Shown here: piece after piece, positions 3,257 through 34,005 of the stretch
How positions within the stretch are numbered: the stretch's first letter is position 1
Layout of the letters: each line of letters begins with the position of its first letter
Assembly: GCA_044892525.1 (NCBI GenBank)
Contig: CM097886.1
Coordinates: 107,322,001 to 107,386,000, forward strand
Reading direction: 5' to 3'
Length of the DNA: 64,000 nucleotides
Source of the DNA: Schmidtea polychroa
Lineage: Eukaryota
Translations under genes and position numbers: made by a program
Notes under the pieces: generated by a model
What the model was told of the DNA's origin: nothing
Seen by the model: only the letters and a program-made list of their open reading frames with translations
Database searches by the model: none

Positions 3257-3916
3257 TTATGTTTGTTGTTCGGTTGCCGTTGATGATGGGTGATTTGGTT
3301 GTTGGGTTTCGATGTTGTAGTATATTCGGCGACTTGTGGACGGTCTGACTGTTTCTGCGATGGAGGTTCGTTGTCGGAGATTTTCTTGGATTACGTCAGC
3401 CATATTATCTTCTTGGGATCTTCAAGACGATCTTTCCGGTACGGGGTGACTTTTCTTCCAAACTTGGTAGATATTATGGATTTTTAGGAGGATGATTACC
3501 ATGATTACGGTGGTTTCGACGATTACTACGTAGAGGAGTTCATGGTGGTCATTTATTTCTTTGGCGATTTCTACTGGTTCGACTGGGTTTTGTATTTCTT
3601 GATGTTGGACCTGTTGTTCCAGCTGATCGAGTTGGTGAATTTGGTCCAGGATTCTTTTATCAATAATTTTGCACATGGGGTGGTTATTACACATTAATCT
3701 GATATTGTTGACGTACGTTCGGGTAACTCGAATATTGTCGGTAAGACGGGTTTTTAGGATACTTGGATAGATGCATGATTTGGCTGTTGGTTCGGTCTTT
3801 TGGTTGGGTTTTCTGCTGTCTCGAATATGTTCAATTTCGGGTTTTACGGGTTGTCGCCTTGTCAGATCAAGGACTATCGTCATCATCAGGATTATTATGA
3901 TCGGTTTGTTTCTCAT
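3257..3916 (-). CDS. Accessory putative membrane protein; stops at TGA 3422-3424, or continues 54 more codons to TAA at 3257 if read through
   Basis: N-terminal MRNKPIIIILMMTIVL and second hydrophobic stretch LLYVVIVETTVIMVIILL. The frame stays open after the TGA (RSQEDNMADVIQENLRQRT...). Confidence 0.6.
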
Positions 3917-3975
3917 ACTACTGATATACATTTAGTAATTTTATACACATTTATATACATCGCTTTTTGTCGGTT

Positions 3976-4683
3976 TTAATTTTGTCGTTTCTTTTTAGGG
4001 TTTTTCTCCCGGATTCGCATTAATTTAGACTCCGCTTTAATGACTCTATGTCGGAGTTCCGGCAACATTTCTAGTTGTCTCTCTTTCTCCTGGACCTTGT
4101 CTGTCAAGTGTCTTATCTCTCTTTTCAAGGTTTTTATCTCCTTCTTCTTTTCTTTCAGGTTCCGTTCCAGTTCCAATTGTAGGAAATCATTTTCCTCTGG
4201 GTCGTTTGTCTTTGAGTTTTGTTTCTGCCGTTTTGTTTCTATTTCTCGATATTTACTATTCCATTTCTCCATTTCTGTACTTTCTTGTACTTTTACTTCC
4301 AGCTGGTTTTCTAACTCCTTGATGGTTTCTTGTCGTTTCCTTGCTTCCGTTTTCCAATAATCTTCGATTACTTCGTTTGCCTTGAAACTGGCTCTCTCCT
4401 GCCATAATTCTTCCGCGATCTTTTCCCAATTTCTCCCTCGCTTTCTTTGTTCGTGAAGCCATTCGTTTTCTACTTCTACTTCTTTCTTTATTTCCTCCAA
4501 TGTTTTGCATTCCCTTTTTAGCGCCTTTATCATTCTTCGATCATCCATATATTTGTCTATCATCCTTTCTTTTTCCTGTTTCTCCTCTATCAACTCGTCC
4601 TTCGGCGTTTTCATTTTTATGGGGTCTGTTTCAATTTCTCCCTCTTCTAGCTCGGTCATGGTGGATATTTCTTCTATTTTCAT
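3976..4683 (-). CDS. Accessory coiled-coil protein (~235 aa from MKIEE)
   Basis: Long K/E-rich ORF; likely ATG at 4683, preceded by TTGTAG|AA. Confidence 0.75.
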   Translation of the reverse strand: MKIEEISTMTELEEGEIETDPIKMKTPKDELIEEKQEKERMIDKYMDDRRMIKALKRECKTLEEIKKEVEVENEWLHEQRKRGRNWEKIAEELWQERASFKANEVIEDYWKTEARKRQETIKELENQLEVKVQESTEMEKWNSKYREIETKRQKQNSKTNDPEENDFLQLELERNLKEKKKEIKTLKREIRHLTDKVQEKERQLEMLPELRHRVIKAESKLMRIREKNPKKKRQN

Positions 4684-4858
4684 TTCTACAATATTTACAA
4701 TTAATAGTGCGCTACAGTGCGGCTTATACTTATACATTTATAGGTAATTTTATATAATCAGGGTTACAGTCCCGTAAATATTTTTATCGTACTAATAATT
4801 TTTTTTTGTTGGGATACAGGTCCCGCTTTTTATATTTTTTTATCTTTTCTCCTTATCT

Positions 4859-5897
4859 TTATACAAAGGTTTCTTCCTGGCCTACATACCCTTCATCGCT
4901 GTCTATTGACGTTTGTAGTTGGATTGCGATGGGATCGAATGGGATGTGGTACCGGGGAATCTGCGCTCTAAGCTCCTGAACTTCGTCTCTTAGCGCTCTT
5001 GACACGTTGAGTTCCTCGTCTAACAGGTATGTCAGATACCTGGTTTCATCATCTCTTACTTCTATCTGTTTTTCTAACTCCTCCGCTTTTTCGCCGTTCT
5101 CCCATTTTTTGATCTCCTTTTCGAGGTTCTTGATATTTTCGTCATACATCTTCCTCTCGTTTTCCAATTTCTTGTTCTTACCGGCTAGCACTATATTCCT
5201 TTGTTCTAGTGCCCCCTTATAGCCGTTATTGTCTCTTTCAAGGTCTGCCACCTTGTTTACGAGTTCGACGATTCTACCTGACTGTTGCAGGATCATCTCT
5301 TCCATGGCGGTATTCTCCTGTTCCTTCATGGACAGTTTCATGGCCAGATGCCTTTCAAATTCCATGGCCTTGGTCTGCCAGGTTTGACTTCTAGCTGCTA
5401 CTTTCCGGAGCCTTCTTAGCTCTTCTTTCTGATCCAGGTTTTCTTCCCATTTCCCTTGATCACTCTCGTGTTCCAATCTCTGCGGCAATTCTCTCATCTC
5501 TTTTTGGATTTCTCGATGTTGTTTTTTTCCCCTTTCTGGCTTCTGCTAATAGTTGGCGGGTCTTTCTTTCCTCCTTTTGTTTTTCTATTTCCCGCTTCTT
5601 ATTCTCATCCGTTAGTCTTTTTCTTGACTCCTGTACCAGCTGCTTCAGGTAATGCCCGTGTGCCTCTTGCCTGGTATTTTCTAATGCCGACCATTTGGCG
5701 GCTCTTTTGCAGGCCTCGGCCTCCGCCCGTAAATTCTGTACTAACCACTGGAACTGGTGGTTTTCCCATTCTCTCGCTTCTTCGAGGTAATTTCGTGTTT
5801 GATTTGATAATTGTGCCATCACTTTGGCCCATCTTTCTCTATGTATTCTACTGATGTTTATTTCGTTATTTGGGGCTTCCGTTTGATCTTGAGTCAT
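4859..5897 (-). pseudogene. Coiled-coil accessory gene split by a 1-nt frameshift in an A7 run
   Basis: Removing one A from GGGGAAAAAAAC (T7 at 5522-5528) joins LLAEARKGKK to QHREIQKEMRELPQRL in a continuous helical protein of about 345 aa. Confidence 0.65.
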
Positions 5898-6115
5898 CTT
5901 TGTCTAAATAACGATATCATTAACTCAACGTTGTACGCTTTTATCTGGTTTATTATTTATTTATTTTTACAATTCGTTATAGGAGTTGTTTTAGGAGTTT
6001 TACGCTTAAGTTTACCTTTAGTAGATTTGGGGGATTTTTCTACACTACTATATAATATTTTACGGGGTATATATGCCGATATTTACAATTAGTATATACA
6101 AAATTATTCGTCTCT

Positions 6116-7504
6116 CTACTCAGTCCTACTCTTCCCGTCTCGCCTCACCGCTATTTTTATGTATATAGTGTCGTTTCTCGTCATGTCTTCTACTTTCCGC
6201 TGTAGGATGAAATTCGGTGCTCCAGTTGCTGGTCCTTCTTCTTCCAAGGGCCTTTGGTAACATACGAGGTTTCCCGCTGTATGGAAACTCTGTTCATGTA
6301 TACTTTGATAGTTCATCATTGCGAGGTCTATTTTTGCTTTGAATGGCCATTCTATTAACTCGTCGTATAGCCCTTTGCACATCAAGAAGAATACTGAGAA
6401 ATGCGTTCCGTATGCACTTCCATCCCCATTGGGGTATGCTTTCATTTTCATTTTATACCCGTTTTTTCATGAGTAGAATGCTGGACTTAGTAATGTGGTA
6501 TCCTTTCCATTTCTCGCTCTCTGCATCTTCTCTTTTACTCCCGTTATTTTCCATATGTATGGAGCCGTTGGTATTAATTCGTTGAGGTTTAATTCGCTTA
6601 CTTTTTGACGTAGTTCTTTCACCATAATGTTGCTAGTTTCCACTAGATCTGTCTGTATCTTTGTACTTGTTCTCGCCTCTTCAAATGCTTCCTTTTCTTC
6701 CAATAACTCTTTTACCAACGCTTTTAGCGAGACCATTTCTTTCTCTAAGTTTTCGGTTTTCCTTTCGTTTTCTTGTAATACCGTTGACCATATTTCCGCG
6801 TGTGTTGATACGTTTTCTGCTAGATGTTGGGGTAATTCTCCTCGGTGTAATTGTTTCTGACATCCCCATTTTCCTAGCACACACGTTATCTTTTTCCTTT
6901 CACATTCTCTGAGATGTTGAGCGAGTCTTATTACTCCAGATTTATCGCATTTATTGGGACATTCTCCTCTGAACCCTGCTCACACTTTCTCCTCTTGTAT
7001 GTTGTGATGTTGACTGATTAGTTTTTTCCAGGTGTCGGTTTCTCCGCAATACTCACATTTCTCCAGTCTTTCTTCGCATCGACTTTGATGTTCTGCTTCT
7101 TCATTGACTTTAATCTCTTCTTGGCAACGTTTGCATTGACTGATTTTATACTCACATTGCTCCATATGTTGCCTCACTTCCCATATCCCTCCTCGCCAAT
7201 TGCATGGGGTGTTTTTACATCCTAAATTTGAATTTAACATATCTTTCACGGCTGCTTTATCTTCGTTTGTATCTCCCAAACTTGTTATCATGGTTTCTTT
7301 ACATACTGGGCACCATTGTGGTCCCTTCTTTATTATCTCCTCTACACATTCTCTGCACATTCTGCATCCACATCTGGTTTGGTGAGGTTCTCTTAATAAG
7401 CTCTTGCATATTCCACACGTTACATGGTTGTGTATTCGAATTGTGGTGGACTTTCTGACTTGTTCAACAATTTCTTTGAATTCTTCTCGTTGTCGCTTAT
7501 CCAT
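6116..7504 (-). pseudogene. TRAF: Full-length TRAF-family gene (RING, TRAF zinc fingers, coiled coil, MATH) with two in-frame TGA codons; pseudogene or read-through
   Basis: The three track ORFs (6980-7504, 6467-6880, 6116-6451) share one frame of 463 codons. RING CGICKSLLREPHQTRCGCRMCREC...CPVC; CPNKC zinc finger; MATH YIWKI...SPAFYS*KNGYKM..YPNGDG...THFSVFF...G.YDELIEWPF. Confidence 0.92.
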
Positions 7505-7593
7505 TTCTATAATTATATATATACATATATTCGTTACTGGTACAGTTTCGTATTTTTATTTACAGTTATTTACATTGCTATTTTAGGTTATAT

Positions 7594-7953
7594 TTATTGG
7601 CTGGAAGAGTCGGCCTCTTGTCCGCCCTCTTCCCTACTGGTTAACCATTCTGACCAGTCTTCTATCTCCTCTCGCTCCATCTCTTCCGCGATTCTTATTA
7701 ACTCCTCTTCTTGCACCTGGCTGTATCGTGATATTCGGTCTATCTCTCGCTGCATTTGTTCTATTTTTATTCGTTGGTCTTCGATTATTCTTACATAACT
7801 GAAGCCTTTATTTAAACTTTCGACTAAGCTTCTTTGTACAGCGAGTCCTTGTTCCTGTAAATTCGAAATCACTTGAGTTAACATTGCACATTGTTGTTTC
7901 CACATCTCCTCGGTTGTCGTACTGTGATTTACTTCCTCGCCTATTCGCTCCAT
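7594..7953 (-). CDS. Accessory acidic coiled-coil protein (~119 aa from the ATG at 7953)
   Basis: E/Q/R-rich ORF bounded by AT-rich spacers; no family recognised. Confidence 0.6.
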   Translation of the reverse strand: MERIGEEVNHSTTTEEMWKQQCAMLTQVISNLQEQGLAVQRSLVESLNKGFSYVRIIEDQRIKIEQMQREIDRISRYSQVQEEELIRIAEEMEREEIEDWSEWLTSREEGGQEADSSSQ

Positions 7954-8121
7954 TCTTAATTTATATATACTTTTCAACCCTTATCCAATTTTATTTTTAT
8001 ATTATTTATCCCCATCGTTATATAATATTGATACCGCGGTTATATAAAAATATATCATACTGTTATATAAATAAATATTATCTACTTACTTTTTACAATC
8101 TATATACAGTCATAATCCTTT

Positions 8122-9125
8122 CTATATACGTGAGCTTGGAGGGCGCTGAGCATTCCAGGCCTCCACCCACTGTTCCTGCTTGATATTACTTGGTCGTTTT
8201 ACACGATGTTGAAAATTTCTTATTCTGGCCATTTCTAGTTCTCCGCGATGCCGTCTATCTTTGATTATTTTTATTGTCCCCCCCGTTATGATTAAAAAGG
8301 CCCCTGTTATTATTATGCCGCTGATCCACATCATCTGTTTTACGCTTATAATTTCCGCTTTTTCCTTGTTCATTATTGTTGATATTGCCTCTGTGCTTTT
8401 TAGATTACCGTCTTTGCCATTTCCTTTTATCATTCCTCGTATTCTTGCTATTTCCTCGTTCATACCTTCCTTTGCCATTCTTTGTATTTTCTCCATCTCT
8501 TCCTCTGATACATAATTGTCCTGATATTTCTCACCGGTTTTCTTGCGTTTTCCTTGCTCATCTTTTTCGTCATTGATTTTTCTTTTCTTCCCTCTTTTCC
8601 CAGGGTATCGTCGACATTCTCTTTCTGGACCGTTTCTCAGGATACAGACCGTATATTCCTTTGGTGGTTGTTGTTGCGTTACATATTGCAGACAATTTTC
8701 TCCTGGGCCTAGCCTTGAAATACACACTTTGTGCTCTTTTCTTGGTTGAAGCTGTGTTATCACTATTTCACCTCCTTTACTCAGGTGTACCTCTTTCCAT
8801 TTGACTTTTGTTATCTTCTTCCCGTTTCGATGTTGGTACGCTTCTTGTATTCCCACTTCCGTTATTGGTTCTGCATCTTCATTTTTTAACACTAGTCTCT
8901 GATAAGCTCTAGACATACATCTTCCTAATATACACCTTTCTTTTAAATCCCATTCTTCTTTTAGATCCCATTGCTGCTCTTGTACTTGTTTTTTCTTTTC
9001 TTGTTTTAGTTCTTCCTCTTTGTTGTCCTTATTTTCCGTTTCTTTGGCTTCTTTTATCGTTCTCATTCCTCCCTGGGCTGTTATCATTTCCACCATTGTT
9101 AATACGAGTATCATTATCATCATAT
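8122..9125 (-). other. C-terminal type-I-membrane-protein-like module
   Basis: Signal-like MMIMILVLTMVEMITAQG (9071-9125), two Cys-loop repeats, and TM MMWISGIIITGAFLIITGGTIKII followed by basic KDRRHR. Confidence 0.6.
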
Positions 9126-12100
9126 TTGTCTCCACTTCTTTGTTGGTAAAAAGTAGGCATACCCTCTGTTTTCCACTATTCGTCTTTTCTTCTTGCTTCA
9201 TTCGGTTTCCCGGGTTATTTTCCTCTTTTTTCCTACTCGCGTCGTTATTTTCTTGATTATTCTCCTCTGATTTCTCTTTCTCTTTATTCCCGTTTCGACC
9301 TTTTTCATTATTATCGTCGTCTTTATCGTCTTTATCTCCCCCGCTATCGTTTAAAATGTCGTCCTCGACATTTATATCATTCAACAGTCTGCGGTATGCC
9401 GTTAGCACCCTGTTTCTTGCTAATTTTGCTTCGAATTCGAACTCTTTTCTGCCTGTTGCTGCATGTCTCTTTCTATTCCATTCTTTTACTAGTTCTCTCA
9501 ATTGTATACGGCGATGTTTTCCGATTCGTTTTTGTTCGTTTAGATTTTGCGTAAATTTGAGGTCTTCTCTGTTCAATACTATCGTTATGATTTTCGGAGT
9601 TCCTCCTTTTGTTAATGTATTTTTAACCATGGCATTTTCTCCGTTTTCATAGAACTCATTTATATTTATTGCATATTTATTACTTTGCGGTAATTTCCAT
9701 GTTAACAATAGCTTCATGGCTTCTAAGTTTTTCCGTATCGTGTTCCATTGGAACTGTGACGTATTTTTACAGATATTTTCTACCTCAGTTCTTGTAGCAT
9801 TTTTACAAATGAATCTAATCATTTCCAAGTTTGGTTGTATTGTTGCCCAATCCATGGTAGAATTTCCTTCGTTTGATATTTCGTCAAGACTCGAACCTGA
9901 TTGATGTAGTATATGTAAGGTTTTCGGGTGTATCTTTGTTATTGCTGCATACATCATTGCTGTTTCTCCTTGTTCATTTTTTGCATTAGATTCTTCTCCG
10001 AAGTCTCTAAGAATTCTTATGATGGTTATTGCTCTGTTTTCTTTTGCTGCTAAAATGGCTTGTTGTAATGGTGTTCTTGAATCTTTTGTTGGTAAGGTGA
10101 ATGCGAGTGGTATAAATGTTTTTATTTTTCCTATGTCTAGATTTGTGGTCTGGTCTCTTGCGTAGGTGTGTACTGTTTTTGTTATTTTTGCTAGTATCGC
10201 TTCATCGGATAGATCTTGCCTTTCCTCCACGAATACTTCTTTAGCCTTACGTACTACTATCTCTTGGTCGGAGTTTATTATCTTTGGTTTACTTGTTGTT
10301 GCTATATCGCTTATTATTTGATTGACTCGTTTCTCAGACTCCCTTGCTGTTATTTTCTTGGTTTTTATCCTTTTCTGGTTCGAACTGTTAATGCGTTCCT
10401 CTGCCGTTAGAACTTGAATAATACTTAGGTAGTTTTCTCGAATGTCATTCATAGTTTCCATCATATATAATACACTCACGGTTTCCCAAAATTTTTCTTG
10501 TACTTTATCGGTAAATTGAGATATAGCTTTTTCGAAGTTGGTAATTCGTTTTCTGATTAGTTGTTCGTCTTTGTGATTTGAGAACTTTATGCCACGTTGT
10601 AGTAGTTGATTTGGAATTTCGAATAGGTGATGTCCTCTCATCGCTTCTCTCATCAAGGTGTTTTCTCCTTTGGTAAATGTTTCGTTTATATCTACCATAT
10701 AATCGTTTTTGATCGGGTTCCTCCATGCAATTAGTAATCCAGCAATTGTTATTAATTTCTCTTTGATTGCAGTTAATAGCCCGTCATACATGTTTCCTAT
10801 CTCCCTATTATCCTCGTATGATAATAGATCTACTAAGATTATGAAGGCTTTCGTACTTTTCCCTTCGATTGCATGATGTAGTGCATTTTTCTGGTTGTGA
10901 TCTTGTGTGGTTATCTTTGACCCAGTTTCAAGTAATGCGATATTAATATCTTTAGCTTTATCCCGATTGGCTGCTATCATTAGTGGAGTGTAACCTTGGT
11001 TGTTTTCTTGATCCGTCGAAATGTTACAGTCGCGAAATGCTTCGATCGTTTCCAGTATTTGTTCATTATTCCCGACCTTTAAAAGTTTGTGCAGCGGTGT
11101 ATCTCCATAATGGTCTGTGATCGTAAATAATATAGGCCATTGACTTTTTACTACCCTGAGTAATGGGTGTGTTCTTTCTCGGTTTGCATAGTTTTCGATC
11201 ATGGTTAGCAGACCTCCCAATATCTCAAAATCTAATCTGTCTTTTGCCCATCCGGGCATTTTAGCTTTCACTTCCTTTATGATTTTCTCGGCTTCTGATG
11301 GTTGTAACCCCAATCGGTTACCTGTTGGTTCGTTTATCTGCTGTAACACATTTATTCTATACGTTTGTGATCTTGTTGTTAATGTTCGCCCTTCCGGCTG
11401 GCTGGTGGCTGTTTTCGGTATTGGCTTACATCGTGCCACGTTTACATATATTGGCCTCGTGAAGGGGTTGTTTACCAATCGTACTCGCACATTGGTTTCT
11501 CCGACGAATAGAATCTCATACGGACCTTTGCCGTTTCGTTGTAATTTTTTGGTGGTTCCTGGAATTAATTCTGGTGTTTCGATCATCACCCAATCACCGG
11601 TTTGAAATGTATGTTGTTTAACGTTTTTCTTTCTATCATGCAGATCTTTGTAACTTTCCTGATAAAACTTTATATTTAATCCCGCAGTTTCCCAGATTTC
11701 TTGCATTCTTTCCTTGAACTTGGTTACATAATCATCTATTTCCATATACTGTGATATTGGTGGCTGATATTCTAAATCCATTGGCATATTGCATTCTCTG
11801 CCGTACATCAACTTAAACGGACTCATCTTTGTGGACGCGTGAATCGACATTCTGTAAGCCATTAAACATAATTTTATATACTCGTCCCAGTCGCGTTGAT
11901 GACGATCGACATAATTTGATAACATTTGAATCAGTGTTCCATTGAATCTTTCTGTCATACCATTAGTTTGTGGATGGTACGGTGATGTTCTTAATTTTGC
12001 GATCTTGAAGTAGTTGGTGACTTCGCTCATTATTTCGCTCATGAAATTTGTCCCCTGATCGGTCAGTATCTGTTTTGGTGTTCCATATCGACAACATATC

Positions 12101-18100: not shown

Positions 18101-21100
18101 CTAGTTGACGGTTGGCTTGTTGTCCATATTTCGGCTCCTGTCGGCCATCTTACCAGAATTTGTGATCTTTCCCCAGCTCCTTCATCGCTGTCTTCCAATA
18201 TGATCTCCTCGATCTCCTCGGTTTCGTTTGATTTACTCGCCACTTTGTTAGGGCTTGGTGTACTCAAGCTACCTTTCGTAGGTTTACTGGATTTGCTCTT
18301 CCTTTTAATCGGTTTTCCCAATGTTTCTGCCATTGTCAATACATTGATCTCCCCCAATCTCATGGGTGTTATTCCGACATCTGCATTATCATCCAACGAT
18401 TTTCCGAATAGTTGTAGGTGAAATGGAGTTTCGTATGCTAATTTCTTTTTTAACTCTCTGATCTTTGTTGTTGGATGTACTTCTGTATCCTCAATGCTTT
18501 GGTCGGGATACTTGACTCGGATACGATACCTTTCCTGGGTATCTTGTGCCCATTCTTGGTTTCTCCATTTCCTAATAATTTGTTCTAGCTGCTCTGGGTA
18601 CCATTCGTTATATTGTCGGTATTCCTCAATCGCTTTCGCCATTTCTCTTAGATTGTGGATATTCTCTGATGTCTTTAGGATGATGTTAGCCAATGCTATT
18701 ACTTGTCGTTTTTGATTTTTTGCTCCCGTTGCTAAGATATCACCTAATTGTTTATATCTTTCCTTCTCTTCTCGTTCTCGAGCTTCCATCGCTTCTTCGC
18801 TGTCCATATCGGCATATTCGCGTTCTTTCTTTCTCATCGCATGAATATGTCTGGTTTCCGTTTCACTTTCTGACGTAACATCCGTTTCGCTTTCGTCGTC
18901 CGATATCGATTCTATTTCGTCCTCTTCGTATTTTGGAGGTTCATCTTCCTCTTCTTCTGATTCACTTTCTGTCTCACCAATGTCTGTTTCTACGAAAATC
19001 CCTTTCCTGATTTCCCATTCTTTGTTTTCCGCATTCCACATCCTTTCCCATGGGGTTCGTCTGCAGGATCTAGTACTCAGTTTCTTTATTTTTCCTTGAA
19101 GCTCTTTTTCTTTTAGCCACTGTTGATGAATTTCAATTATCTCTACTGATTTTTGGTATAGCGTTTTCATCCTGTCTCGTATTTCTTTCTGGTATGTTAC
19201 ATCTCTTGTTCGGAATTCGTCCATGGGCAATATTTTGATGATTTGATGATTATCCCACATTCCCATTTCACTTAACGAGGTATCGTCTTCAGCCCGTAAT
19301 ATTATTTTATCGTACATCATGACTACGTCATCTATCATACCATCACTACTCTCGCTTCGTACCTTTTCCGTTATCTCTTGGTTTATCTTGGTTACTAAGT
19401 CATCCACCGTACTCTGATTACTCATCTTTATTCGTCGTTTCTCCTCGTTTGGTAACCATATGGTTATTTCTAATTTCTGCGGTTGCGTTTCTTTTAATCT
19501 TCCGTATTTGTGGATCAAATTTATGGTTCTCCAATCGCTCATCCTGAGCAATTCTGTATCTCGTAATCGGCTCATTAGTTCATGCATAGTTGGGGTTCGT
19601 TTTGCTATGAGCAAATCCCAGTTGTCTTCAACTTGTTCTTGGATTTGTTTGATTAGTTTATCTAGATTCCGCCTTAAAGTGCATTGTTTTATTTGTTCCA
19701 ATTTCAGCTTGATATTGAAATCGTATTCAGCCTTGGCGTCTTTAGCCCATTCATGAACATTAGCTGGTTGCTTCTCTTTATGCAACTTCAATATTTGAGT
19801 TTCTCCTGGCCAGATCAATGCATCTATTAGGTGCATGTCTGGTTTGATTTGTTCTCCTTGATATTGATACAGATATTCTTTCTTTCTTGAATTACCCAAA
19901 TGTTCTCTTATCCAATCGAAAAGATCGTCTGTAACTGTATTTTTTATCCATATTCTCTCGAGTCCTTTACTCGTTCCGATTTTTATTACGTAGCGTGTTG
20001 TCTCCGCTTGTTTCATTTTTTCCATATACTTCTTTATTATCGCTTTCTCCTCGCTTGGTATTAAATCTTTTTCGTTTCTTTCCAGTTTCATTATCTTTTG
20101 TATGAAGCGTCTGTATGGTATGATGTCAATGAAATCCTGGTTTCTTACCACCACTGGAAGTATTTCTTTTACTTGTTTTATCGCCTCTTCTTTTTCCTTT
20201 CTCAGTTTCATCTCGATATTCTCATCTTCACTTTCGCTTGCCACATCGCTTTCACTTTTCTCCTCATCTTCTCCGATCTTTTTCTTTAGTTGTTCGATAT
20301 TTTCATTTAACTGTAATATTTCTCCACCAAGGCTACTCACATAATCCTCCTCGTCATCTGTTGACAATACCTTCTTTGTCGTCCTCATCATGTTAATTCG
20401 TAAGTTTCTCATTCTTGATACTTTCTTGAGCTTTTTATTCTCAAATATCGTTAATTCTTCCGATTCTAATTCTTGTACCATTTCATGGGTTAAATGACTA
20501 GTTTGTTTCTCGTTTCCGTCATTTATCGCTTCTGCTTCTGTTTTTGTTTTCTCATGTTCTCTTTCGATCTTATCTTTTATCTTTTTCCAAAATATTTTCT
20601 GGATTCTCTGATTTCCCTTTAGTGGTGTTGTTGGATTTTCCTTTTTATCTTCCGTAACCGTTTCTTTCGGCTTCTCTGGTTCGATCATAGGTACAACTCT
20701 TGGATTTTTACCATAATTGTAACAATATTGCTCCTTTATCTCTTTTACCATTCTCATCATATTTATTCGTAATGGTTGTTCTTGTCGCTGCTGAATTCGC
20801 TCTCTTTTTATTCTCTCTTCCTCAGCTTGTAGTCTCTGCCATTCTTGTGCATGTTGTTGCACTTCATAATTGTTAAGATTTTCGGTGCTCCTCATCATAC
20901 GTATATTCTGAGTTTGTTGTGCTACTGGTTCTTGTCTCGGTCTCATCATTTGTTGCATCATCTGTTTCATTTGTGAAATTTCTTGCATCACGTTCATTTG
21001 CTTTCCTTCACTGGGGTTACTTTGTCGTTGCGGATTAGGTGCATAATTATTGTTTCGTTGTGGTGGTTGTTGTTGTTGGCTCCTTTCTCGGCAATCTCTT

Positions 21101-21996
21101 GAGATGTGACCTGGCTGACCGCAGTTAAAGCATCCTCTCAACTGGCATATATTTTCCGTGTGTCCTCGTCGTCCGCATCTATTACAATTTGCGTTTCGGT
21201 AACAATTTCTATCCCAATGTCCTGGTTTACCGCATGTTCGGCATTGTTTGTTATCGTTCGTATTTCGTCGATTATTAAAATTATTTCCATTGTTCGAGTT
21301 GTTGCGTTCACTGTTATTCCCGTTTGATCGTCCTTGCGGTGGTTTGAAAATTTGATGCGCACCTGGTATAAACTGATTCATCTTCGGTTCATGATTGTTG
21401 TTATCTCCATTTTCCGTTTTCACCGTTGCTGATGCGATTCTTCCCTCCTCCTGCATGACATTCATTTGTGCCGGGAGGTGTAGTTCGCATCTTGTGGCCC
21501 AATCTATGGCCTCTTCTAGTGTTTTACACATCTGACATCCCACCGAGGCTCTTACCTCTTCCCGGCGTAGTCCTTCTATGAAGTAACCAATTAGATTTTC
21601 CTCCGGCAAGTTTCCGTTCATGGCCTTCTTTGCCAATCTTCGCAATTCGCTCGCGTATAACGTTATTGATTCATTGGCTCTTTGTTTTCTACTCGCTAAT
21701 TCTCCTAGGGCTTGATTTATTGGTTTGCTGGCCCCGAATGTTTTCCTCAAAAATGTTTTGATGCTTTCCCAATTGTCTAATTTCGTATTCCTCTCTTTTG
21801 CTTCTAGGTATACTTCGAGTGCGCTATCGCACAAAAACAGAGGCATTCGTTTACTAATTGCTTCCGCTGTCCATCCGCACACATCGATATAGACTTCAAA
21901 ATTTGTTATGAACGTTGCCAACTTGTTCGCATTCCCGTTAAACGGTTCGCCTCTAAATTTTTCTTTATACTCGTCGGTTTTTACCACATTCATCAT
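8122..21996 (-). CDS. 4,624-aa Gag-UBL-Bcl2-Env-PR-RT-RH-IN-ANK-TM polyprotein, copy 1
   Basis: Single uninterrupted ORF ending in TAG. Motifs: CCHC x3, DTG, YIDD, TDAS, HHCC/DDE integrase, ankyrin TPLH-type repeats. Confidence 0.97.
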   Translation of the reverse strand: MMNVVKTDEYKEKFRGEPFNGNANKLATFITNFEVYIDVCGWTAEAISKRMPLFLCDSALEVYLEAKERNTKLDNWESIKTFLRKTFGASKPINQALGELASRKQRANESITLYASELRRLAKKAMNGNLPEENLIGYFIEGLRREEVRASVGCQMCKTLEEAIDWATRCELHLPAQMNVMQEEGRIASATVKTENGDNNNHEPKMNQFIPGAHQIFKPPQGRSNGNNSERNNSNNGNNFNNRRNTNDNKQCRTCGKPGHWDRNCYRNANCNRCGRRGHTENICQLRGCFNCGQPGHISRDCRERSQQQQPPQRNNNYAPNPQRQSNPSEGKQMNVMQEISQMKQMMQQMMRPRQEPVAQQTQNIRMMRSTENLNNYEVQQHAQEWQRLQAEEERIKRERIQQRQEQPLRINMMRMVKEIKEQYCYNYGKNPRVVPMIEPEKPKETVTEDKKENPTTPLKGNQRIQKIFWKKIKDKIEREHEKTKTEAEAINDGNEKQTSHLTHEMVQELESEELTIFENKKLKKVSRMRNLRINMMRTTKKVLSTDDEEDYVSSLGGEILQLNENIEQLKKKIGEDEEKSESDVASESEDENIEMKLRKEKEEAIKQVKEILPVVVRNQDFIDIIPYRRFIQKIMKLERNEKDLIPSEEKAIIKKYMEKMKQAETTRYVIKIGTSKGLERIWIKNTVTDDLFDWIREHLGNSRKKEYLYQYQGEQIKPDMHLIDALIWPGETQILKLHKEKQPANVHEWAKDAKAEYDFNIKLKLEQIKQCTLRRNLDKLIKQIQEQVEDNWDLLIAKRTPTMHELMSRLRDTELLRMSDWRTINLIHKYGRLKETQPQKLEITIWLPNEEKRRIKMSNQSTVDDLVTKINQEITEKVRSESSDGMIDDVVMMYDKIILRAEDDTSLSEMGMWDNHQIIKILPMDEFRTRDVTYQKEIRDRMKTLYQKSVEIIEIHQQWLKEKELQGKIKKLSTRSCRRTPWERMWNAENKEWEIRKGIFVETDIGETESESEEEEDEPPKYEEDEIESISDDESETDVTSESETETRHIHAMRKKEREYADMDSEEAMEAREREEKERYKQLGDILATGAKNQKRQVIALANIILKTSENIHNLREMAKAIEEYRQYNEWYPEQLEQIIRKWRNQEWAQDTQERYRIRVKYPDQSIEDTEVHPTTKIRELKKKLAYETPFHLQLFGKSLDDNADVGITPMRLGEINVLTMAETLGKPIKRKSKSSKPTKGSLSTPSPNKVASKSNETEEIEEIILEDSDEGAGERSQILVRWPTGAEIWTTSQPSTSYQQPNKLSIEEIIDNTTETETDEQFQRQKGPTKATPEGQTDKIIDEWNEWLRNNDSSLPRTDNERNPSYETTRETGTMMEKRAKGRPRKQGEKPEFKTREQLKQEQGQVRLEKLDKIVWDLKEAQPTIERGEKWIRELVKDMLIITNPQLRRLWQRKVASVDARQLWNTISGIIPKLIKEKTKTTKTDWEETRRVIEQLTLNANDDEHHLVVLTYLMYNLMGLAARKIPNKQFANHVEMTVTIIENTIEPHIIRAGGWKRLIQAPRKNDQERSMQIRLKKLLNELEWELPLKDPASRKASINSLMMTMMIWMLCTSGAAGFTIYDCDNSIIGERYSLRDIEECRQASPNKLDIVKKKVSYHVYQESDFIRTQARECVVSKKVLAYYCGQYSYSTLILPGLDKEIVPIQREDCKELFRTGAMRIRDGVTIHGQSGMIKTESIYVAGRVKSTDGSCNGGTYTIRGEVISGVVVIESYTVELKEYEAQFDANNYQMKTNPACRATENVCRTGISTIIYEANTQKCRLQLLKSALFNEVKGEIYENEDDDEENGNVRMRNGKPVPPSPKEKRLTTQKTPTALITDDPDIGMRFIREKETTKCDSIVYRTNYAGIYMSRQVIDRAVGKVSTEDVKLYLYANNKMDFLFHRGQTTMQKVYYDLIQNDCSLNKEILKTKLAIAITHPDNTMPSLPLPDGHFGRMVGEVMYTYACTKTFARLPRKPTIPPGKCANELEISYKGQNRFVQPVTRIMNPIGFYPNTFNCSNAYGPLYEKPDGKWIMLPVKTEVQEPKKFGLIELATEQDFKPIDVSKAGMYSAEDLETARLNVLFPARRESILSNMVTITGGTNFQSGPNYELLLSPDHFQQATSNMMKAMWGRFLVFGQMMAGILGIILIIQIVRVILTQMLACFDIYKREKKVNWKLIVGFLPFLAKTMVLHGHSKDIHRIKRLIKILTKIKGTDEEVGRRFRKTMYDEATRTQLKKNKPKFLDRFRNRSNSSDSDDDDNGNDKYPYPSRNPNEKPIETAPYWEKEKTNTWIANGSYIPPDIVGQQTALTMTQNMYPQLPSQPGMNYMPTRRTKSVDQADDVRTIAVMSSPGGAAVTVMIQINGKETSAMIDTGANVSAIAINQIPSKCWKDIEQTTIHIIACSKETVDVVGRWWTTLRYQDNEIETYLAVIPKLSEPCIIGTDLMPELFKEVVIDLTTMCLKDKMGRICKMNAIIRFPEKIIVPAKSQMICQIKVDAGMEGEAIFEPSKSFEKRRELPLAREIITINDEGEIPINITNFEEEDKIIYENERLGRLTPMIDIELPKITNETTKADELWTIDSTLLTEKEKERLQQLLIEYKDIFAISDLDLGACDVTLHAIPLIDETPIALRPYKLAEKQKEIAEAEVQKMLDAQVIEPSCSPWQFPVVMVKKKDGTQRFCIDYRKLNAVTKRDTYPLPDINEMLLMLQGAAYFTSLDLKSGYWQIKVKEEDKEKTAFTLGRDLYQFRKMPFGLTNAPASFQRCMNFVTHGIKQCMVYIDDLLIYSATFEQHLEDIRNVFVRLRQWKLKLKPSKCDWAKEKVTFLGHIVSAKGKEPDPRNIEKIKTCPAPKTVTQVQEFLGLCGYYRKFIKNYAGIAKPIQELVKKDISFIWGAEQQKAFETLRDKLIEAPILVHPDFKKPFLLATDASGYAAGAILGQLDEEGKERVIGYYSRTFKKHEKNYSVTEREALAIIQAIKHFRYLLWGHEICITTDHQPLVWLGQHKEASSRLMRWAMQLQEYSPFIKFKAGRANANADCMSRFIFPDLVDHEMQRICLMVAEDLDFCQLRKDQQEDTELKQIIEYVKTGKAEVYEKDQKLKEHMDKHRHRYIIEKDWLLIMDGEKRLMCIPENRRKDLLTQYHDGRLGGHMSSKKTLARMKQKYFWPTLTEDVTEWVKNCITCATRKNTGTKWKAPLKPMPVPAEPMTMISMDVVGPLPESDRGNIYILVITDYLTKFPEAFAMTDQKAKTIAKILVEEICCRYGTPKQILTDQGTNFMSEIMSEVTNYFKIAKLRTSPYHPQTNGMTERFNGTLIQMLSNYVDRHQRDWDEYIKLCLMAYRMSIHASTKMSPFKLMYGRECNMPMDLEYQPPISQYMEIDDYVTKFKERMQEIWETAGLNIKFYQESYKDLHDRKKNVKQHTFQTGDWVMIETPELIPGTTKKLQRNGKGPYEILFVGETNVRVRLVNNPFTRPIYVNVARCKPIPKTATSQPEGRTLTTRSQTYRINVLQQINEPTGNRLGLQPSEAEKIIKEVKAKMPGWAKDRLDFEILGGLLTMIENYANRERTHPLLRVVKSQWPILFTITDHYGDTPLHKLLKVGNNEQILETIEAFRDCNISTDQENNQGYTPLMIAANRDKAKDINIALLETGSKITTQDHNQKNALHHAIEGKSTKAFIILVDLLSYEDNREIGNMYDGLLTAIKEKLITIAGLLIAWRNPIKNDYMVDINETFTKGENTLMREAMRGHHLFEIPNQLLQRGIKFSNHKDEQLIRKRITNFEKAISQFTDKVQEKFWETVSVLYMMETMNDIRENYLSIIQVLTAEERINSSNQKRIKTKKITARESEKRVNQIISDIATTSKPKIINSDQEIVVRKAKEVFVEERQDLSDEAILAKITKTVHTYARDQTTNLDIGKIKTFIPLAFTLPTKDSRTPLQQAILAAKENRAITIIRILRDFGEESNAKNEQGETAMMYAAITKIHPKTLHILHQSGSSLDEISNEGNSTMDWATIQPNLEMIRFICKNATRTEVENICKNTSQFQWNTIRKNLEAMKLLLTWKLPQSNKYAININEFYENGENAMVKNTLTKGGTPKIITIVLNREDLKFTQNLNEQKRIGKHRRIQLRELVKEWNRKRHAATGRKEFEFEAKLARNRVLTAYRRLLNDINVEDDILNDSGGDKDDKDDDNNEKGRNGNKEKEKSEENNQENNDASRKKEENNPGNRMKQEEKTNSGKQRVCLLFTNKEVETNMMIMILVLTMVEMITAQGGMRTIKEAKETENKDNKEEELKQEKKKQVQEQQWDLKEEWDLKERCILGRCMSRAYQRLVLKNEDAEPITEVGIQEAYQHRNGKKITKVKWKEVHLSKGGEIVITQLQPRKEHKVCISRLGPGENCLQYVTQQQPPKEYTVCILRNGPERECRRYPGKRGKKRKINDEKDEQGKRKKTGEKYQDNYVSEEEMEKIQRMAKEGMNEEIARIRGMIKGNGKDGNLKSTEAISTIMNKEKAEIISVKQMMWISGIIITGAFLIITGGTIKIIKDRRHRGELEMARIRNFQHRVKRPSNIKQEQWVEAWNAQRPPSSRI
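9560..11170 (-). other. Two ankyrin-repeat modules after integrase (~10590-11170 and ~9560-10090)
   Basis: GDTPLHKLL, GYTPLMIAA, KNALHHAI, SRTPLQQAI, GETAMMYAA, GNSTMDWA. Confidence 0.85.
11415..12460 (-). other. DDE integrase with HHCC zinc domain and GPY/F motif; no chromodomain seen
   Basis: H...GH...CITC; DVVGPLP; TDQGTNF; PYHPQTNGMTERFN; GKGPYEI. Confidence 0.96.
12750..14030 (-). other. pol: Reverse transcriptase and RNase H
   Basis: YIDD at 13531-13542; LDLKSGYWQI; FLGH; RNase H LATDASG, EREALAI, TDHQPL, NANADCMSR. Confidence 0.97.
14480..14810 (-). other. Aspartic protease
   Basis: VMIQING...AMIDTGANVS (DTG at 14752-14760) and CIIGTDLM. Confidence 0.93.
15300..17200 (-). other. env: Envelope glycoprotein, chuvirus-glycoprotein-like (class III-type), with internal signal peptide and C-terminal TM anchor
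   Basis: Signal SLMMTMMIWMLCTSGAAG then FTIYDC...YSLRDIEEC; YYCG; AGRV..DGSC.GG; YANNKMDFL; GEVMYTYAC; CANELEI...F.QP.TR; GMYS.EDL...VLFP; TM FLVFGQMMAGILGIILIIQIV. This Cys/motif order is what I recognise from chuvirus-like glycoproteins. Confidence 0.8.
17311..17775 (-). other. Bcl-2-like domain within the polyprotein
   Basis: ENTIEPHIIRAGGWKRLI matches BH2 (Bcl-xL NDHLEPWIQENGGWDTFV). Helix spacing upstream fits alpha4-alpha6. The BH1 NWGR motif is degenerate. Confidence 0.7.
18334..19998 (-). other. Three ubiquitin/SUMO-like beta-grasp domains (~19785-19998, ~19228-19476, ~18334-18531)
   Basis: YQYQGEQIKPDMHLIDALIWPGETQI (SUMO-like); LEITIWLPNEEKRRIKMSNQSTVDDLVTKI...DDTSLSEMGM; YRIRVKYPDQSIEDTEVHPTTKIRELKKKL...LQLFGKSLDD (ubiquitin-like). 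Matched by eye to ubiquitin/SUMO patterns. Confidence 0.6.
21091..21996 (-). other. gag: Gag capsid plus three CCHC zinc knuckles (copy 2 = +26412)
   Basis: Capsid-like FNG...FITNFE...W...L...A...W..IK..L...F; knuckles CRTCGKPGHWDRNC, CNRCGRRGHTENIC, CFNCGQPGHISRDC at 21091-21243. Confidence 0.93.
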
Positions 21997-23265
21997 GACT
22001 GGTTCTTGTAACTCTATTGTTTCTTTTAAATTTTCCAGCGGTGTCGCTAAATTATGGACGGATAATTCTTCGGTTGACCCGGTTAGGTTGTTTGTTATAT
22101 CGGATAGGCTTTCTCTGCTTCTAGATCGACTAGGGGTGTATCCGAGGTTTTCTTGGTCAAATGTTGGTACTTGATTTGTTCTTTTTGCTCCTTGTGATCT
22201 TCCTCTTTGCTGTTTTATGGATCGTCCTCTTCTGAGCTGTTCTAGTTCGTCTCCTGAAATTAATACGTCTCTTGACTTACTTGAGGATCTGAGATTTAGT
22301 TTCTCCGTGATTTCTTCTTACGCCTCTTTATCGTCTCTTATGGATTTCTCGGCAATTATCGGCTGCTGACTTGAGCGAATTCGGTTTTGTCGGTGTTCCG
22401 AGTCCTTGGCAATTGGTTGTTAGCGTTATGAGACGTCTTCCGTTCTTGGAATCTTCGGGTTGTGTTACTCCTACTGAGCGGGTTCTGGATTGGTTATTTC
22501 TAGTTGGTCGTTGATTTCTTCGAATTCCTTTGTGCAGGTTCTGGATTGGCTTGATTGACTGGATTGGTTTGGTATCTAAAATGAAAAAATGATCTCGTGT
22601 TGCATCTGCTCACACGACTTCATCATTCTTTCTTCAACATTCAAACACAGACACCGTTTAGGGCCTCTGTTATGCTTCTCTTTATTTCCCCATACAATTT
22701 CTCGTGGATTATAGTTACCCATCAACCCATAATTTTCGTCGATTTTAAATTATCTATTTAGGGTAGTAATAATTATCTATATGGTCGTATGAATTATCTA
22801 TAATTATCATTTATAATATCGATAGGTCGTTGTCAGTTACTGCTTATCACCCCCCATATTCTCTTAATCCTTTTACGCGGTTCCGCTATTTTACTTAGTC
22901 TTCCGTCTCTGTTCCCTTTTACTCGGTTCTACTCTGAACCAAAAAAAAAATCAGATTCGTTTATCCAGTTTAAACCAAAAATTCTGTAGACTTTTGTCTA
23001 CTTACTTGGGATCCCCTTTAATTAATTAATTATCTTCCTTTTTACTCGTCATTTATTCCCACTTATTCTCTACTTTTACTATCTCCTCAATTCATTTTCC
23101 TTTTCTGATTCTCCTTTTCTACTAAAAGGGTTTTACTTTCATCTTCTACGAGCTCGTTTAATCCTTTCTAAATTCGACTTCTCGTATCCCAATTCAATTC
23201 GTTTCTAGCTAGCTTAATATTCTATCTCATTATCAACTTAAATATTATCCAATCATTTTCTAGGC

Positions 23266-24271: not shown

Positions 24272-24751
24272 TTAACTGAAGTAAATCGTGTGCTTCTCCT
24301 TTATTGCACATACACATAAAGAACAATCCGTTAAACTGACAGCGCATTCGTCGCAATGGCTAAGGTGTCCACAAGGTAGCATTAGAATTCTGGCAGGTCG
24401 CGTCTTACAAATGTTACAAGTTCTCAAGGCCGCTGCTTTTTCTATTATCGAGGTTCGTATTCTCTGAGATAGAGTTTTTACTTGTTCGCGTATTCTCACC
24501 TATTCGAGGTTCAGAGCGGGGTCGTCGAGTCGTTGCTGCATCCATTGGTAATGGACAGACAAGTCGGTGTCGGTATTTGTTGACCCCAATCTGTCGGTTA
24601 GAAAGTTTTGTTTGGATATCAGCGGTGCGTTGTGGCGTTGTTGCTCTAGGGTGTCTATTTGTTGCAGTTTTTCTCTTAACGTCTTTATGGAATCGTTTTC
24701 TATGTCGACGAACCGGCTTAGTCGTTGTAGGTGTTGTCGGGCTCCTGACAT
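24272..24751 (-). pseudogene. Coiled-coil plus IAP-type C-terminal RING gene in the 5' leader, with an in-frame TAG at 24500-24502
   Basis: Track ORFs 24500-24751 and 24272-24499 are in one frame (PALNLE*VRIREQ). CNICKTRPARILMLPCGHLSHCDECAVSLTDCSLCVCAIKEKHTIYFS follows the XIAP/IAP-type RING pattern. No BIR domain seen. Confidence 0.8.
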
Positions 24752-25158
24752 ATCTAAATAAGTATGTTGTCATTACTCGGTCTCACTTACAAAAATAAAA
24801 ATAATATTATCGTGTTATAATCAATGTTCGTTTGGCTTTGTTCGCCATTGTTTCTAGTTTATGTATTTTATTCAATCTTTAATAATTCTTTTTAATTTAA
24901 TTCATTTAAAATTAAACAAAATTAGTCAATTCCCATTTTCTCTTCCCTTCATATTCAATCGCATTCATTCAAACTTATTTAGGTTCGTTTTTGTTCATAG
25001 CATGTTCTATTTTACGCAAAGACAGTTCGCATCATCATCTTAATACACTATTATATCGATTCATTTCAGTCCCGATTCCCTTTTTTATTATAATTAATTA
25101 AATTGTTAGTCTAACACATCGTAATGCAGTAATAGGCAATCAAACAATTCGAAATCAG

Positions 25159-25176
25159 ATCCCGGCTGAGCCCCCA
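25159..25176 (-). promoter_or_regulatory. Primer-binding site complementary to the 3' end of tRNA-Pro
   Basis: Minus strand TGGGGGCTCAGCCGGGAT. The plus strand ATCCCGGCTGAGCCCCCA resembles the eukaryotic tRNA-Pro 3' end (ATCCCGGACGAGCCC-CCA type). It lies 7 nt inside the LTR end. Confidence 0.85.
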
Positions 25177-25183
25177 AAAATCA

Positions 25184-28100
25184 TGTTGGCATATGTGGGG
25201 AAAAAGAAATTTGTTGCACACATCATCATCTCACATCTCACATACCCTGCATCATTACTCCGCTCAGATACTCCCCATACATACACCAAATGATCATGTA
25301 CATATTCCCACGCATGAGCCCGTGGTGATGTTCCACGTTGGTGCTGCTCACACGGGTTGGAAAAGGTTAGCAGGTGAGCCTCTGCCTTAAGACTACTCCT
25401 AACCCTTTCTCGATACGGGTTCTACGGTGCCTTAGAAGGTCTTACCCCGTCCCACATACACAATTCGGTCCGACCCTGGTCCAAGGGGACGACCTTGTAT
25501 TATCACCTACATTCGACATCATCTTTCCACTCGTATCAACTTCGATATCTCACCTGTTAAAATCAATCATCAGAAACAATAAAAGATGTATTAACTTATA
25601 ACAAATCATTACACGCAGAATAATCAAGAACTGTTTTACATGTAAACATACAGCATTTATAAACACGCAAGTTCACTTCGGGACCATGCATAGAACAAGG
25701 CACCTTTGAATTGATCAATCGAAGGGTTCTCCATCCGCAAGCATTGCGTCGATATCGACCGGCAGTCGTGGGTTAGAAATGTACTTGATGCCTTCTGCCG
25801 GTATTACACGAAAGATTTCCTTTGATGGGATGGAATGGCTGGAGGATATTTCTCTTATGGTAGATTGAGCTACAGATAGTGACGCCTCGAGAGCAGCCAT
25901 CGCATCTCGGCGTTTCTGATTTTTCTCGGCTCAGGTCGGCCGTTTCCGTTTGCGAGACGACGGGGGATTGTCAGTGTGCGGGGTGACGACGGTTGCCCCC
26001 AAGATTGGAGCCAAGATGGGCTCGGTAGGTCTACCTACCAAGGGTTGAGAACCCGATAAGATTGGAGCTGGAATGGGCGGTAGGCACGATCCATGCCCTT
26101 GGCAGCTCGTAGCAGTCGGTTCGGATACTTGATGATGAAGAGGGAAAACGTTCATTTTCTCTATGACGGGAAATTCCCGTACCCGCTTGGCGAGTTCTGC
26201 CTCCGTATAAACCTTGTGGAGGGCTTCTGATTGGGCTTTGATTGTAAGCCGTTGGCATCGGCTTTCCTCCAGCAAGCTATCTCTACAATGTTCTAACCGG
26301 AGGATTTTCTTTCGTTCCTCCTTCATTTGTGGCGGGGAGAACCACGTGCCTTCGTAAAGGTCGATTCTTTTCTTTAAAGCCCCGATGTATAGATGGAGCT
26401 GCGCGATATCTGCATTTTTATCCGCGCAGGAGAAACATGGGCGAAGAGTTTTCTCAGCAGTTGTAAAAGTAGTCATCTAAAGAATGAGAAGTCCTTTATT
26501 TACATCATTAAAATCCTTTCTACTATTTATTTTCTTTTTATCGTGAGCTTTATCCTACCACATATGCATACAATCAGGATTGTCCCCCACATCCATACCT
26601 TTGACATCACTTAACTCATCCAAACCGTAAACCTTCAAATCAACCCATCACATCGTTCGTAATGAAGAGAAAATGAGAACCATCACACGTTATTTCTCTA
26701 CTCATATTGATATTGTACCTAGGTTCCTGGGTCGACAGTTATCATCTAATCGCAATAAGTTACTCCTTACCACGGATATATTTTTTCCACTTTTATTTAT
26801 TATGACCTATTAAGGGTGGGTCTACTCCCTGGTTTTTATGGCTTATTGCGTTATGCCTGCTTTAATTTAAAAGAAGTAGTTCCATACTGTTGATGCACTT
26901 GGCGCTGTATTAAGTTAAAACGAATTTGTTAAAAATTATTATTAGTATTAATTTCCCTCATAAATTATAATTTAATTATTTAAATTTTCGCATTTCATGT
27001 TGTCATAACGACGCGTATCGGTATGTAGTTGTGTACTGGTTTCAGACTCTACCTGATGTGCGCTAATGTGTATTATCTCGTTTTACTCAATTATCGCTGT
27101 CCTCTCTTAACAACTCTAGACATGGTGTCTGTTAGTGTACTTTGATCTCGTCGTTTATTTATGTATGCCTACTAACACATTCTACTATGACGCAATGATG
27201 ATGTCAACTCACACACGTCCCTTGTACTAGTGGATTTATCTGTGTGTGGGTTTGGGCCTACTTATCTCAGTTATAACATTATTAGCAGATGGGCTAGACG
27301 GATGGAAGATAATGATTCAGGCTTATAGAAGTAACGATTGTTATGATTTCAAGATTGCCCAAATCTGTTACCGGGTAAAAATGGATTTAACTCCTATCTC
27401 TCTCGTGAATGTTGACTATTCTCAAAAACCTAATCGTCTCATCGATTTGGCGCATGTCGTTCCACAATCGAACCGCTGGAATATTTTATCTACGCTACTT
27501 GCTTCTCTGCAATAGTCGTTTCTCGATCAGATGGAAAATTTATCGATAATTTGTTCGAAATGGTCGATGATAATTTCCTTTAGGACTGTAATAAGTACCT
27601 ATGATTAATTAGAACTTTGCTGTTTACTTTCCTGTCAGGACGAATCCTTATCGATGACAGTAGTTAATCGAAGGTTGATAACTAAGTCTCCTACTCGTCA
27701 AATGACATATCACCGCGATGGGTTTACTCGCTAACGTTCTCTTAATTTATCAATTCTTAGGAATATAGAATATTCTAGATTTTTATCATTCCTCAAGAAA
27801 CGAAAATGGACGTTAGAATTATCAGTGAAGTTCGAGAATTTCATTACCCTCAAGGATAGTCGATATTCACATTCTGACGAAAAGAAGTAACCTAGCTCTG
27901 AATTGAATATGGCCGAACTCAAACTCGGATTAAATATCGAAAAATGTCGTCGATCTCCTAGAATTTTCAGTCAGCACGTTGTCGGCATCGAAACCAGTAT
28001 CGTTCAGAAGTTTCCTCAATAGAAAACTTCCGACGGCTAATTTTATGGATATCACTCGATGAAAGGATCATTGACTCGATTCGTTTTCTCTCACAGGGTT

Positions 28101-29413: not shown

Positions 29414-29668
29414 AATCACTCCGGGGGCCGTTAAAATTGCGTCCCGCAATTCACACAATATCATACATTTAGATCATACCTTCTTTCGGTATAACCCATA
29501 ATCTCACAATCAAAATCCACACAAACATAAAATCAAATTAACACAAAAATACTTTAATTAAACAGAGAAAATGACAAATATAAGCAAGCAGTGGCCACTT
29601 AAGGTGACCGGTTTCATCAGAAGATAATAAAACAGCAAAAATTTTGTCAATAGTTACAGTTCGAAATG

Positions 29669-30328: not shown

Positions 30329-30387
30329 ACTACTGATATACATTTAGTAATTTTATACACATTTATATACATCGCTTTTTGTCGGTT

Positions 30388-33916: not shown

Positions 33917-34005
33917 TTCTATAATTATATATATACATATATTCGTTACTGGTACAGTTTCGTATTTTTATTTACAGTTATTTACATTGCTATTTTAGGT
34001 TATAT

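Follow-up and report, generated by a model that had tools for sequence, protein, structure and literature searches.

Complex retroviruses and the adenovirus major late unit join one short leader to many alternative acceptors, and the genomic RNA of foamy viruses is unspliced. We know of no common-leader system that splices its genomic RNA at the leader and restores the intron by strand transfer. Here we describe a giant long terminal repeat (LTR) retroelement of the planarian Schmidtea polychroa whose anatomy may be that of such a system. It lies in a window of 64,000 nucleotides (nt) of contig CM097886.1 (forward-strand positions 107,322,001 to 107,386,000; the window is this whole stretch, and coordinates below are positions within it). 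The closest described relatives are Burro and GYPSM1 of planarians, which are giant Ty3/gypsy elements according to the accessible text of their description (PMC6431247). Burro-type elements are reported there and elsewhere, again in accessible text, to exceed all other known LTR retrotransposons in size, to be abundant in the genomes of planarians and to be de-repressed upon PIWI loss (PMC6431247; PMC8532177); in S. mediterranea, knocking down PIWI increases Burro RNA (PMC8532177).

Parts of the arrangement have parallels in other elements, as far as the accessible portions of the accounts go. In foamy viruses the major splice donor is likewise inside the LTR, in R upstream of the poly(A) signal, and as it is present at both ends it must act differently in the 5′ and 3′ LTR; a duplicated leader is not described in the available text (PMC3694450), and a U3-dependent fold as a mask of the donor is not general here. 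Cer1 of Caenorhabditis elegans, likewise of the gypsy type, produces a subgenomic messenger RNA (mRNA) by means of host splice sites, but it makes a single spliced mRNA, partly capped with SL1, and none of the splice sites is used in its 8-kb RNA; the accessible part of that account mentions no leader repeat (PMC3315495). The ta-TRIM LTRs of Echinococcus show that a flatworm LTR donor splices in cis to downstream sites, even to a spliced-leader (SL) site, but these elements are non-autonomous and their targets are host genes (PMC4558846). Both the element family and retroviral leader splicing are already known. In the literature surveyed, mostly without subscription papers and supplements, we found neither Burro expression nor the restoration of a duplicated leader by strand transfer described.

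A giant Ty3/gypsy element of the Burro type

The minus strand of the window carries two tandem units of an LTR retroelement with a period of 26,412 bp and three LTR copies; period and LTR (4,230 bp) together give an element length of 30.6 kb. The genes and sites of the element given below are on the minus strand. The polyprotein of 4,624 amino acids (aa) at 8122..21996 contains, by Pfam, gag, CCHC, fusion glycoprotein, protease, reverse transcriptase (RT), RNase H, integrase and ankyrin domains, and MATH/TRAF and RING modules were also detected by Pfam. We assign the element to the Burro/GYPSM1 type because it is bounded by LTRs, is ~30 kb long and has the polyprotein domain order, ankyrin repeats, MATH/TRAF and RING modules given for that type in the accessible text of its description (PMC6431247). 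The likeness extends to a 4.6k-aa polyprotein, to an env in frame between gag and pol and to accessory open reading frames (ORFs), with the difference that TRAF is here a downstream accessory ORF (PMC6431247). BIR and BCL2 gave no Pfam match at E 0.01 in the polyprotein, and the published analysis used more sensitive methods (PMC6431247). On the expression of the accessory ORFs and on an LTR leader repeat the available part of that account is silent. In the element studied here the LTR contains one ORF, a RING ORF follows the primer site and another five ORFs follow the polyprotein; several ORFs are broken in the window copy. The host genome contains hundreds of candidate copies of the element.

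A predicted splice donor and a repeated leader in the LTR

Within the LTR common to both tandem units (25184..29413, 4,230 bp, TGTTGG...CCAACA), a TATA box predicted to be the promoter (28910..28917) stands 30 nt before a leader of 25 nt, X, which is the predicted first exon (28863..28887). X has no ATG in the window copy and ends in CAG before a GT donor. It is followed by an intron-like stretch of 47 nt (28816..28862, GTAAAA...CTACAG), the last 25 nt of which (28816-28840) are an exact copy of X, here called X′, containing a branch-point-like CTAAC. The donor at 28862, CAG/GTAA, has rank 3 of 1,031 GTs.

This anatomy recurs across the genome. Selecting TATA...AG/GTA sites with at least 16/25 X/X′ matches gave 73 distinct LTRs; a set of 80 sites with the repeat counts some LTRs twice. 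At each of these 80 sites the donor reads GTAA and lies 54-57 nt from the TATA box. Of the 73 distinct LTRs, 65 have an X′ identical to X at 25/25 positions and 6 have one identical at 24/25, and the GT-AG stretch measures 44-53 nt, a size that matches the short host introns of 40-67 nt. The 61 sites below 19/25 matched at 4-16 positions and are by position outside the promoter, save one with an indel (two were inspected). X itself occurs in about 18 versions that are at the median 48% alike. YTAA is present at the putative branch-point place in 18/18 X′ versions, none of which ends in ATG, and about 22 nt separate the end of X from the start of X′.

The limits of the repeat are sharp. Over 49 distinct pairs, X/X′ identity by position is 0.35 at -26, 0.96-1.0 from -25 to -1, 0.55 at +1 and 0.18 at +2; it begins at -25 and ends at AG/GT. 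Single-base variants are common to X and X′ within one LTR (L060; L041 versus L042). When the window's X with its upstream bases was followed through 97 genomic copies, GT came next in 88, and in the remaining nine exactly the intron-like stretch was missing (9/9); two of these intron-less copies appear to be both LTRs of one element. The leader repeat is absent at 4/4 loci of simpler env-bearing relatives without accessory ORFs.

Several other features were seen in and around these LTRs. The loci L135-L150 are smaller env-bearing gypsy families with a gag-env-pol of 3.3k aa, 37% identity and LTRs of about 1 kb, and they have neither accessory ORFs nor leader repeat. The nine bases just before X (28888-28896) are the reverse complement of its last nine, in the window's clade only. 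Donor-like sites lie at 28236-28636 in the LTR around a short coding-like stretch, of which that at 28294 is GTAAA or GTAAG in most subfamilies and that at about 28635 is found in some; these are possibly further LTR exons. Two candidate sites were set aside: an AG/GT at 25554, considered as a recursive splice site, is not conserved, and a GTAAGT at 24790 is lost in most subfamilies.

Acceptor-like sites before the genes

The first-pass annotation of this sequence had noticed that ORFs of the element begin just after acceptor-like AGs, at 26476, 24751, 7953, 7504, 5897, 4683 and 3916, and all seven contexts are as quoted there. With gag included, 8/8 ORFs have an acceptor-like site after which that ORF's ATG comes first. 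In the LTR, the AG at 26477..26478 (rank 36 of the element's 2,169 AGs) directly precedes the LTR ORF (25931-26476), which is shortened by a stop in the window copy. The AG at 24754..24755 (rank 26) is 2 nt before the RING ORF (24272-24751; RING PF13920, E 2e-9), which has an in-frame stop at 24500-24502. For gag we identified a strong site absent from the earlier annotation, the AG at 22576..22577 (rank 2), from which an ATG-free stretch of 579 nt leads to the gag start. Behind the polyprotein, an AAG site (7955-7956, rank 56) precedes an ORF of 119 aa from 7953 (7594..7956, site included), and the AG at 7507-7508 (rank 6) precedes the TRAF gene from 7504 (6116..7508; RING to MATH by Pfam), interrupted in the window copy by in-frame stops at 6980 and 6467. 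The AG at 5904-5905 (rank 12) precedes an ORF from 5897 (4859..5905) that is spread over two frames in the window copy and presumably encodes a coiled coil, a label we take over from the first-pass annotation. The AG at 4686-4687 (rank 31) belongs to an ORF of 235 aa from 4683 (3976..4687). The CAG at 3921-3922 before the last ORF, from 3916 (3422..3922), is the weakest site (rank 63) and is alternatively legible as a TATA with a TCAGT initiator.

These ranks derive from a host acceptor matrix built from 67 introns that we inferred in this genome, using 20 dynein heavy-chain loci. The host acceptors are AT-rich, with T at -3 in 41, C in 18, A in 7 and G in 1, and 37 of the 67 host introns are 40-67 nt long. 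On this scale the seven annotated sites fall in the top 0.3-2.9% of element AGs and between the 18th and 61st percentile of host sites, and a site scoring at least 4 is equally close to 2.3% of 610 other ATGs. Against base shuffles the seven acceptor scores give a Fisher p=8e-7, a value that is generous, as the introns were inferred in this analysis and the starts were picked by a reader with the AGs in view. The spacing from AG to ATG, which the annotation had suggested comparing with shuffled sequence, also departs from expectation: in dinucleotide shuffles of the upstream 60 nt, a YAG 0-6 nt from the ATG, as found in 6/7 cases, has P=3e-4, and a YAG or AAG 0-6 nt before the ATG, as found in 7/7, has P=8e-4. 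Upstream in-frame ATGs exist for 4683 (at 4737) and 3916 (at 3931), a caveat on the chosen starts.

The sites are retained across copies. Among 40 copies, the claimed AG ranks first in retention in all five 3′ spacers (36/39 tied, 35/40, 39/40, 38/40 and 34/40). At 7953 the homologous ATG is preceded by a YAG or AAG in 35/38 copies, and a YAG precedes it in 34/39 at 7504, 37/40 at 5897, 36/39 at 4683 and 32/40 at 3916, where 5/40 copies have no YAG; the misses include truncated loci. Between copies, T and C replace each other at -3, and the distance from AG to ATG varies freely between 0 and 6 nt; at 5897, for example, TAG and CAG interchange at distances of 2-6 nt. The distance is without frame bias at 6/7 sites. 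In 20 further loci the LTR-ORF AG is kept in 20/20, the RING AG in 19/20 and the gag AG in 19/19. Twelve loci chosen for divergence, two of which had no element, kept them in 9/9, 8/8 and 7/7, respectively, at 46-58% identity of the LTR ORF and 32-37% of RING, often with longer pyrimidine tracts. The gag acceptor in the divergent copies is 469-668 nt upstream, and in 6/7 the interval is free of ATGs.

Two further sequence features were found in the spacers. The motif TGTA(A/C/T)ATA occurs at 8108, 7574, 7564, 7525, 6100, 6087, 4699 and 3959, that is, eight times in 714 nt of spacers, against 0 times in the polyprotein (13.9 kb). Its retention per spacer is 34-37 of 36-39 copies, and we take it to be Pumilio-element-like or donor-like. 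A GTAAGT donor-like site at 8084-8089, 33 nt past the polyprotein stop, is present in the spacer as GTAAG in 30/36 copies and could define a further exon.

Proposed expression and replication of the element

Given the anatomy and conservation described above, we consider it likely that X is spliced in cis by the host spliceosome, each transcript using a single acceptor, which would yield a nested series of single-gene mRNAs. The donor is probably the element's own. Transcription would start at the first base of X, and X would be joined to one of at least nine acceptors. Splicing to 26477, 24754, 22576, 7955, 7507, 5904, 4686 or 3921 would bring the ATG of the chosen ORF into first place. The gag-env-pol mRNA would be formed via the acceptor at 22576, because the unspliced leader is 6,891 nt long and contains 137 ATGs.

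Splicing of X to the nearest acceptor, X′, would remove 47 nt together with the donor and leave a full-length RNA with the primer site, likely the genomic RNA. At the first strand transfer, strong-stop complementary DNA (cDNA) ending in X would anneal to X′ of an unspliced 3′ LTR, and copying would go on through the intron, X and U3, by which the intron and the donor would be restored. Every round would replace X′ by the sequence of X over the span between cap and splice junction only, which would produce the observed limits of X/X′ identity. Were the 3′ copy also spliced, both progeny LTRs would lack the stretch, as appears to be the case in one element here. We incline, if only slightly, to the view that this is a retroelement with a spliced genome RNA: joining X to X′ would spend the sole strong donor and turn an mRNA precursor into a genome, strand transfer would restore intron and donor each cycle, and the same leader would serve at least eight single-gene mRNAs across introns of up to 25 kb.

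Several points weigh against this scheme. The evidence is all DNA, in which the anatomy, the conservation and the identity of X′ with X can be read directly and from which we infer splicing and every other RNA step. The five 3′ acceptors are 20.9-24.9 kb from the donor, beyond any intron in the host set, which was drawn from 10-kb stretches in which longer introns could not appear. As an acceptor X′ is weak (rank 175, 12th host percentile). A direct repeat can homogenise or be deleted without splicing, and one element is without the intron in one LTR only (L159 versus L160). The LTR ORF is an exception to the lack of frame bias, with an AG-to-ATG distance of mostly 0 or 9 nt, in frame, as the AUG of an SL prefers. 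A search for genomic copies joining the window's X to a distal acceptor gave 0 of 2 matches, both being a base variant after X′. The 3′ copy would have to stay unspliced; folding shows no general masking of the 3′ donor (10/17 types). A hairpin between U3 and X was tried as such a mask and rejected, as it has 9-10 bp in the window's clade only and 2-4 bp in 7/17 types.

Alternative explanations

The AGs might be chance features of AT-rich spacers: a YAG is found within 6 nt at 19.8% of other ATGs, the starts were chosen with the AG visible, and a conserved ATG close by aids alignment. The acceptor scores, the retention and the persistence at about 35% protein identity speak against chance, which we regard as extremely improbable; on these comparisons the AG-before-ATG sites are a real feature of the element. 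Each 3′ ORF might instead have its own TATA promoter in the spacer, with the AG as initiator or start context. TATAWAW occurs 17 times in the spacers where 3.2 are expected, a count that also tells against cis-splicing, and the ORF from 3916 has a TATA 32-34 nt ahead of TCAGT, while 5/40 copies have lost its AG; at this one site an internal promoter is plausible. At 7504, however, no more than 20 nt separate the TATA-like runs from the ATG, at 5897 the window copy has none, and the constant part is a YAG behind a T-rich tract. Since internal promoters would also leave the gag, RING and LTR-ORF acceptors and X/X′ unexplained, we think them improbable for the five ORFs together. Alternatively, the acceptors may be used in cis while X′ is kept equal to X by gene conversion or by template switching of the RT from one direct repeat to the other, the genomic RNA being unspliced like that of ordinary retroviruses. 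Textbooks describe repeat-mediated deletion by RT, and the loss of the intron from a single LTR of one element needs no splicing. Repeat upkeep of this kind does not explain a start 30 nt after the TATA and an end at AG/GT in every subfamily, nor the host intron size of the unit and the YTAA kept in X, and to us it seems doubtful.

The first-pass annotation had proposed that the element resolves a polycistronic transcript with host splicing or SL machinery, by analogy with either complex retroviruses or SL operons. Its acceptor reading and its comparison with complex retroviruses are supported, now with an LTR donor and a conserved leader added, and its operon reading is disfavoured. In such an operon, host SL trans-splicing with 3′-end formation in the spacers would resolve the five 3′ genes, and the LTR leader would serve the 5′ acceptors only. 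The spacers are AT-rich, as had been reported, and their 59-218 nt (about 60-220 nt in the annotation) fall within the flatworm operon threshold of 300 bp given in the accessible text of PMC12582326. SL is present in planarians (PMC10899757, accessible part), Cer1 has SL1 on its spliced mRNA (PMC3315495, accessible part), introns of 21-25 kb would not be needed, and TGTA(A/C/T)ATA, which could be a 3′-end or Pumilio-type signal, is strongly enriched in the spacers (8 versus 0.2). AATAAA, by contrast, which the annotation had seen in several spacers, is in three of the five and no more frequent than expected by shuffling (4 versus 4.0), with none in two spacers, where variant poly(A) signals are possible. 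A conserved cis donor precedes all acceptors and should outcompete the SL, to judge from the available account of ta-TRIM elements (PMC4558846), and distances of 1, 2, 4 and 5 nt would put the terminal AUG of the flatworm SL out of frame (PMC12582326, accessible text). The distance floats over 0-6 nt at 6/7 sites, and an AUG-free leader therefore fits better than a flatworm SL ending in AUG as described there. We judge an operon resolved by the host SL unlikely, and less likely than cis-splicing from the LTR donor.

Other features of the window

The remaining LTR copies are at 51596-55825 and 1-3001, the latter extending 1.2 kb past the window, and the second tandem unit occupies 29414..55825, each part of the first unit recurring at +26,412. 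A 4-bp target duplication, TTTA, flanks the whole array. Directly after the LTR there is a primer-binding-site-like 18-mer (25159..25176), which we take to be of the tRNA-Pro type. The units at 1-55825 share the middle LTR and the same broken ORFs, and differ by 2 mismatches over 29.4 kb; either a damaged copy was duplicated in tandem very recently or the duplication arose in assembly. Further tandem pairs occur in other parts of the host genome. Between the RING ORF and gag, the leader contains a tandem repeat array (23194-23699) with a 74-bp unit. Outside the element are a 287-aa ORF without Pfam match (59077-59940, minus strand) and a stretch of 550 bp with 95-nt inverted ends (63224-63773). 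No tRNA was found in the window, and Rfam on 22000-35000 gave one chance-level match and no SL family.

Contigs from seven of 12 sequencing runs were examined, six that we guessed to be RNA-like or that are unlabelled and run X2, and these weigh neither for nor against splicing. GT-AG ends on the element strand were seen at none of the contig joints inspected (15 of 69; 13 of 13), nor did any loose end inspected (23 of 873; 15 of 147) read as a leader at an acceptor; neither result is evidential. Cover is thin in three runs (X7, 10 contigs; X8, 4; X9, 1), and the depth profile of run X1 resembles that of the unlabelled X2. A contig of run X7 spans 28813-28968 and one of run X8 reads through the intron-like stretch, as expected of a 3′ LTR transcript or of DNA. 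Contigs of runs X1 and X7 join 30275 to 33675, a skip of 3.4 kb from TRAF into the last ORF that is not GT-AG and is probably an internally deleted derivative; L043 is similar. Contigs of run X6 end in an A-run at 29428-29549 on the plus strand, opposite to the element and adjoining the LTR start, which may reflect the end of an antisense RNA or priming in A-rich DNA.

Implications

For the TRAF, RING and other accessory ORFs of Burro elements, exact and testable splice junctions are now proposed. If the reading of X and X′ given here is true, it shows by what route an intron can survive in a retroelement despite replication through RNA, in this case a spliceosomal intron maintained by reverse transcription. 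It would also be a way of exporting a full-length retroelement RNA without a Rev-like factor, and would provide a new answer to the retroviral need to obtain spliced mRNAs as well as a full-length genome from a single promoter. The joint evolution of X and X′ would then be a fossil record of the transcription start and of the splice, legible in DNA alone.

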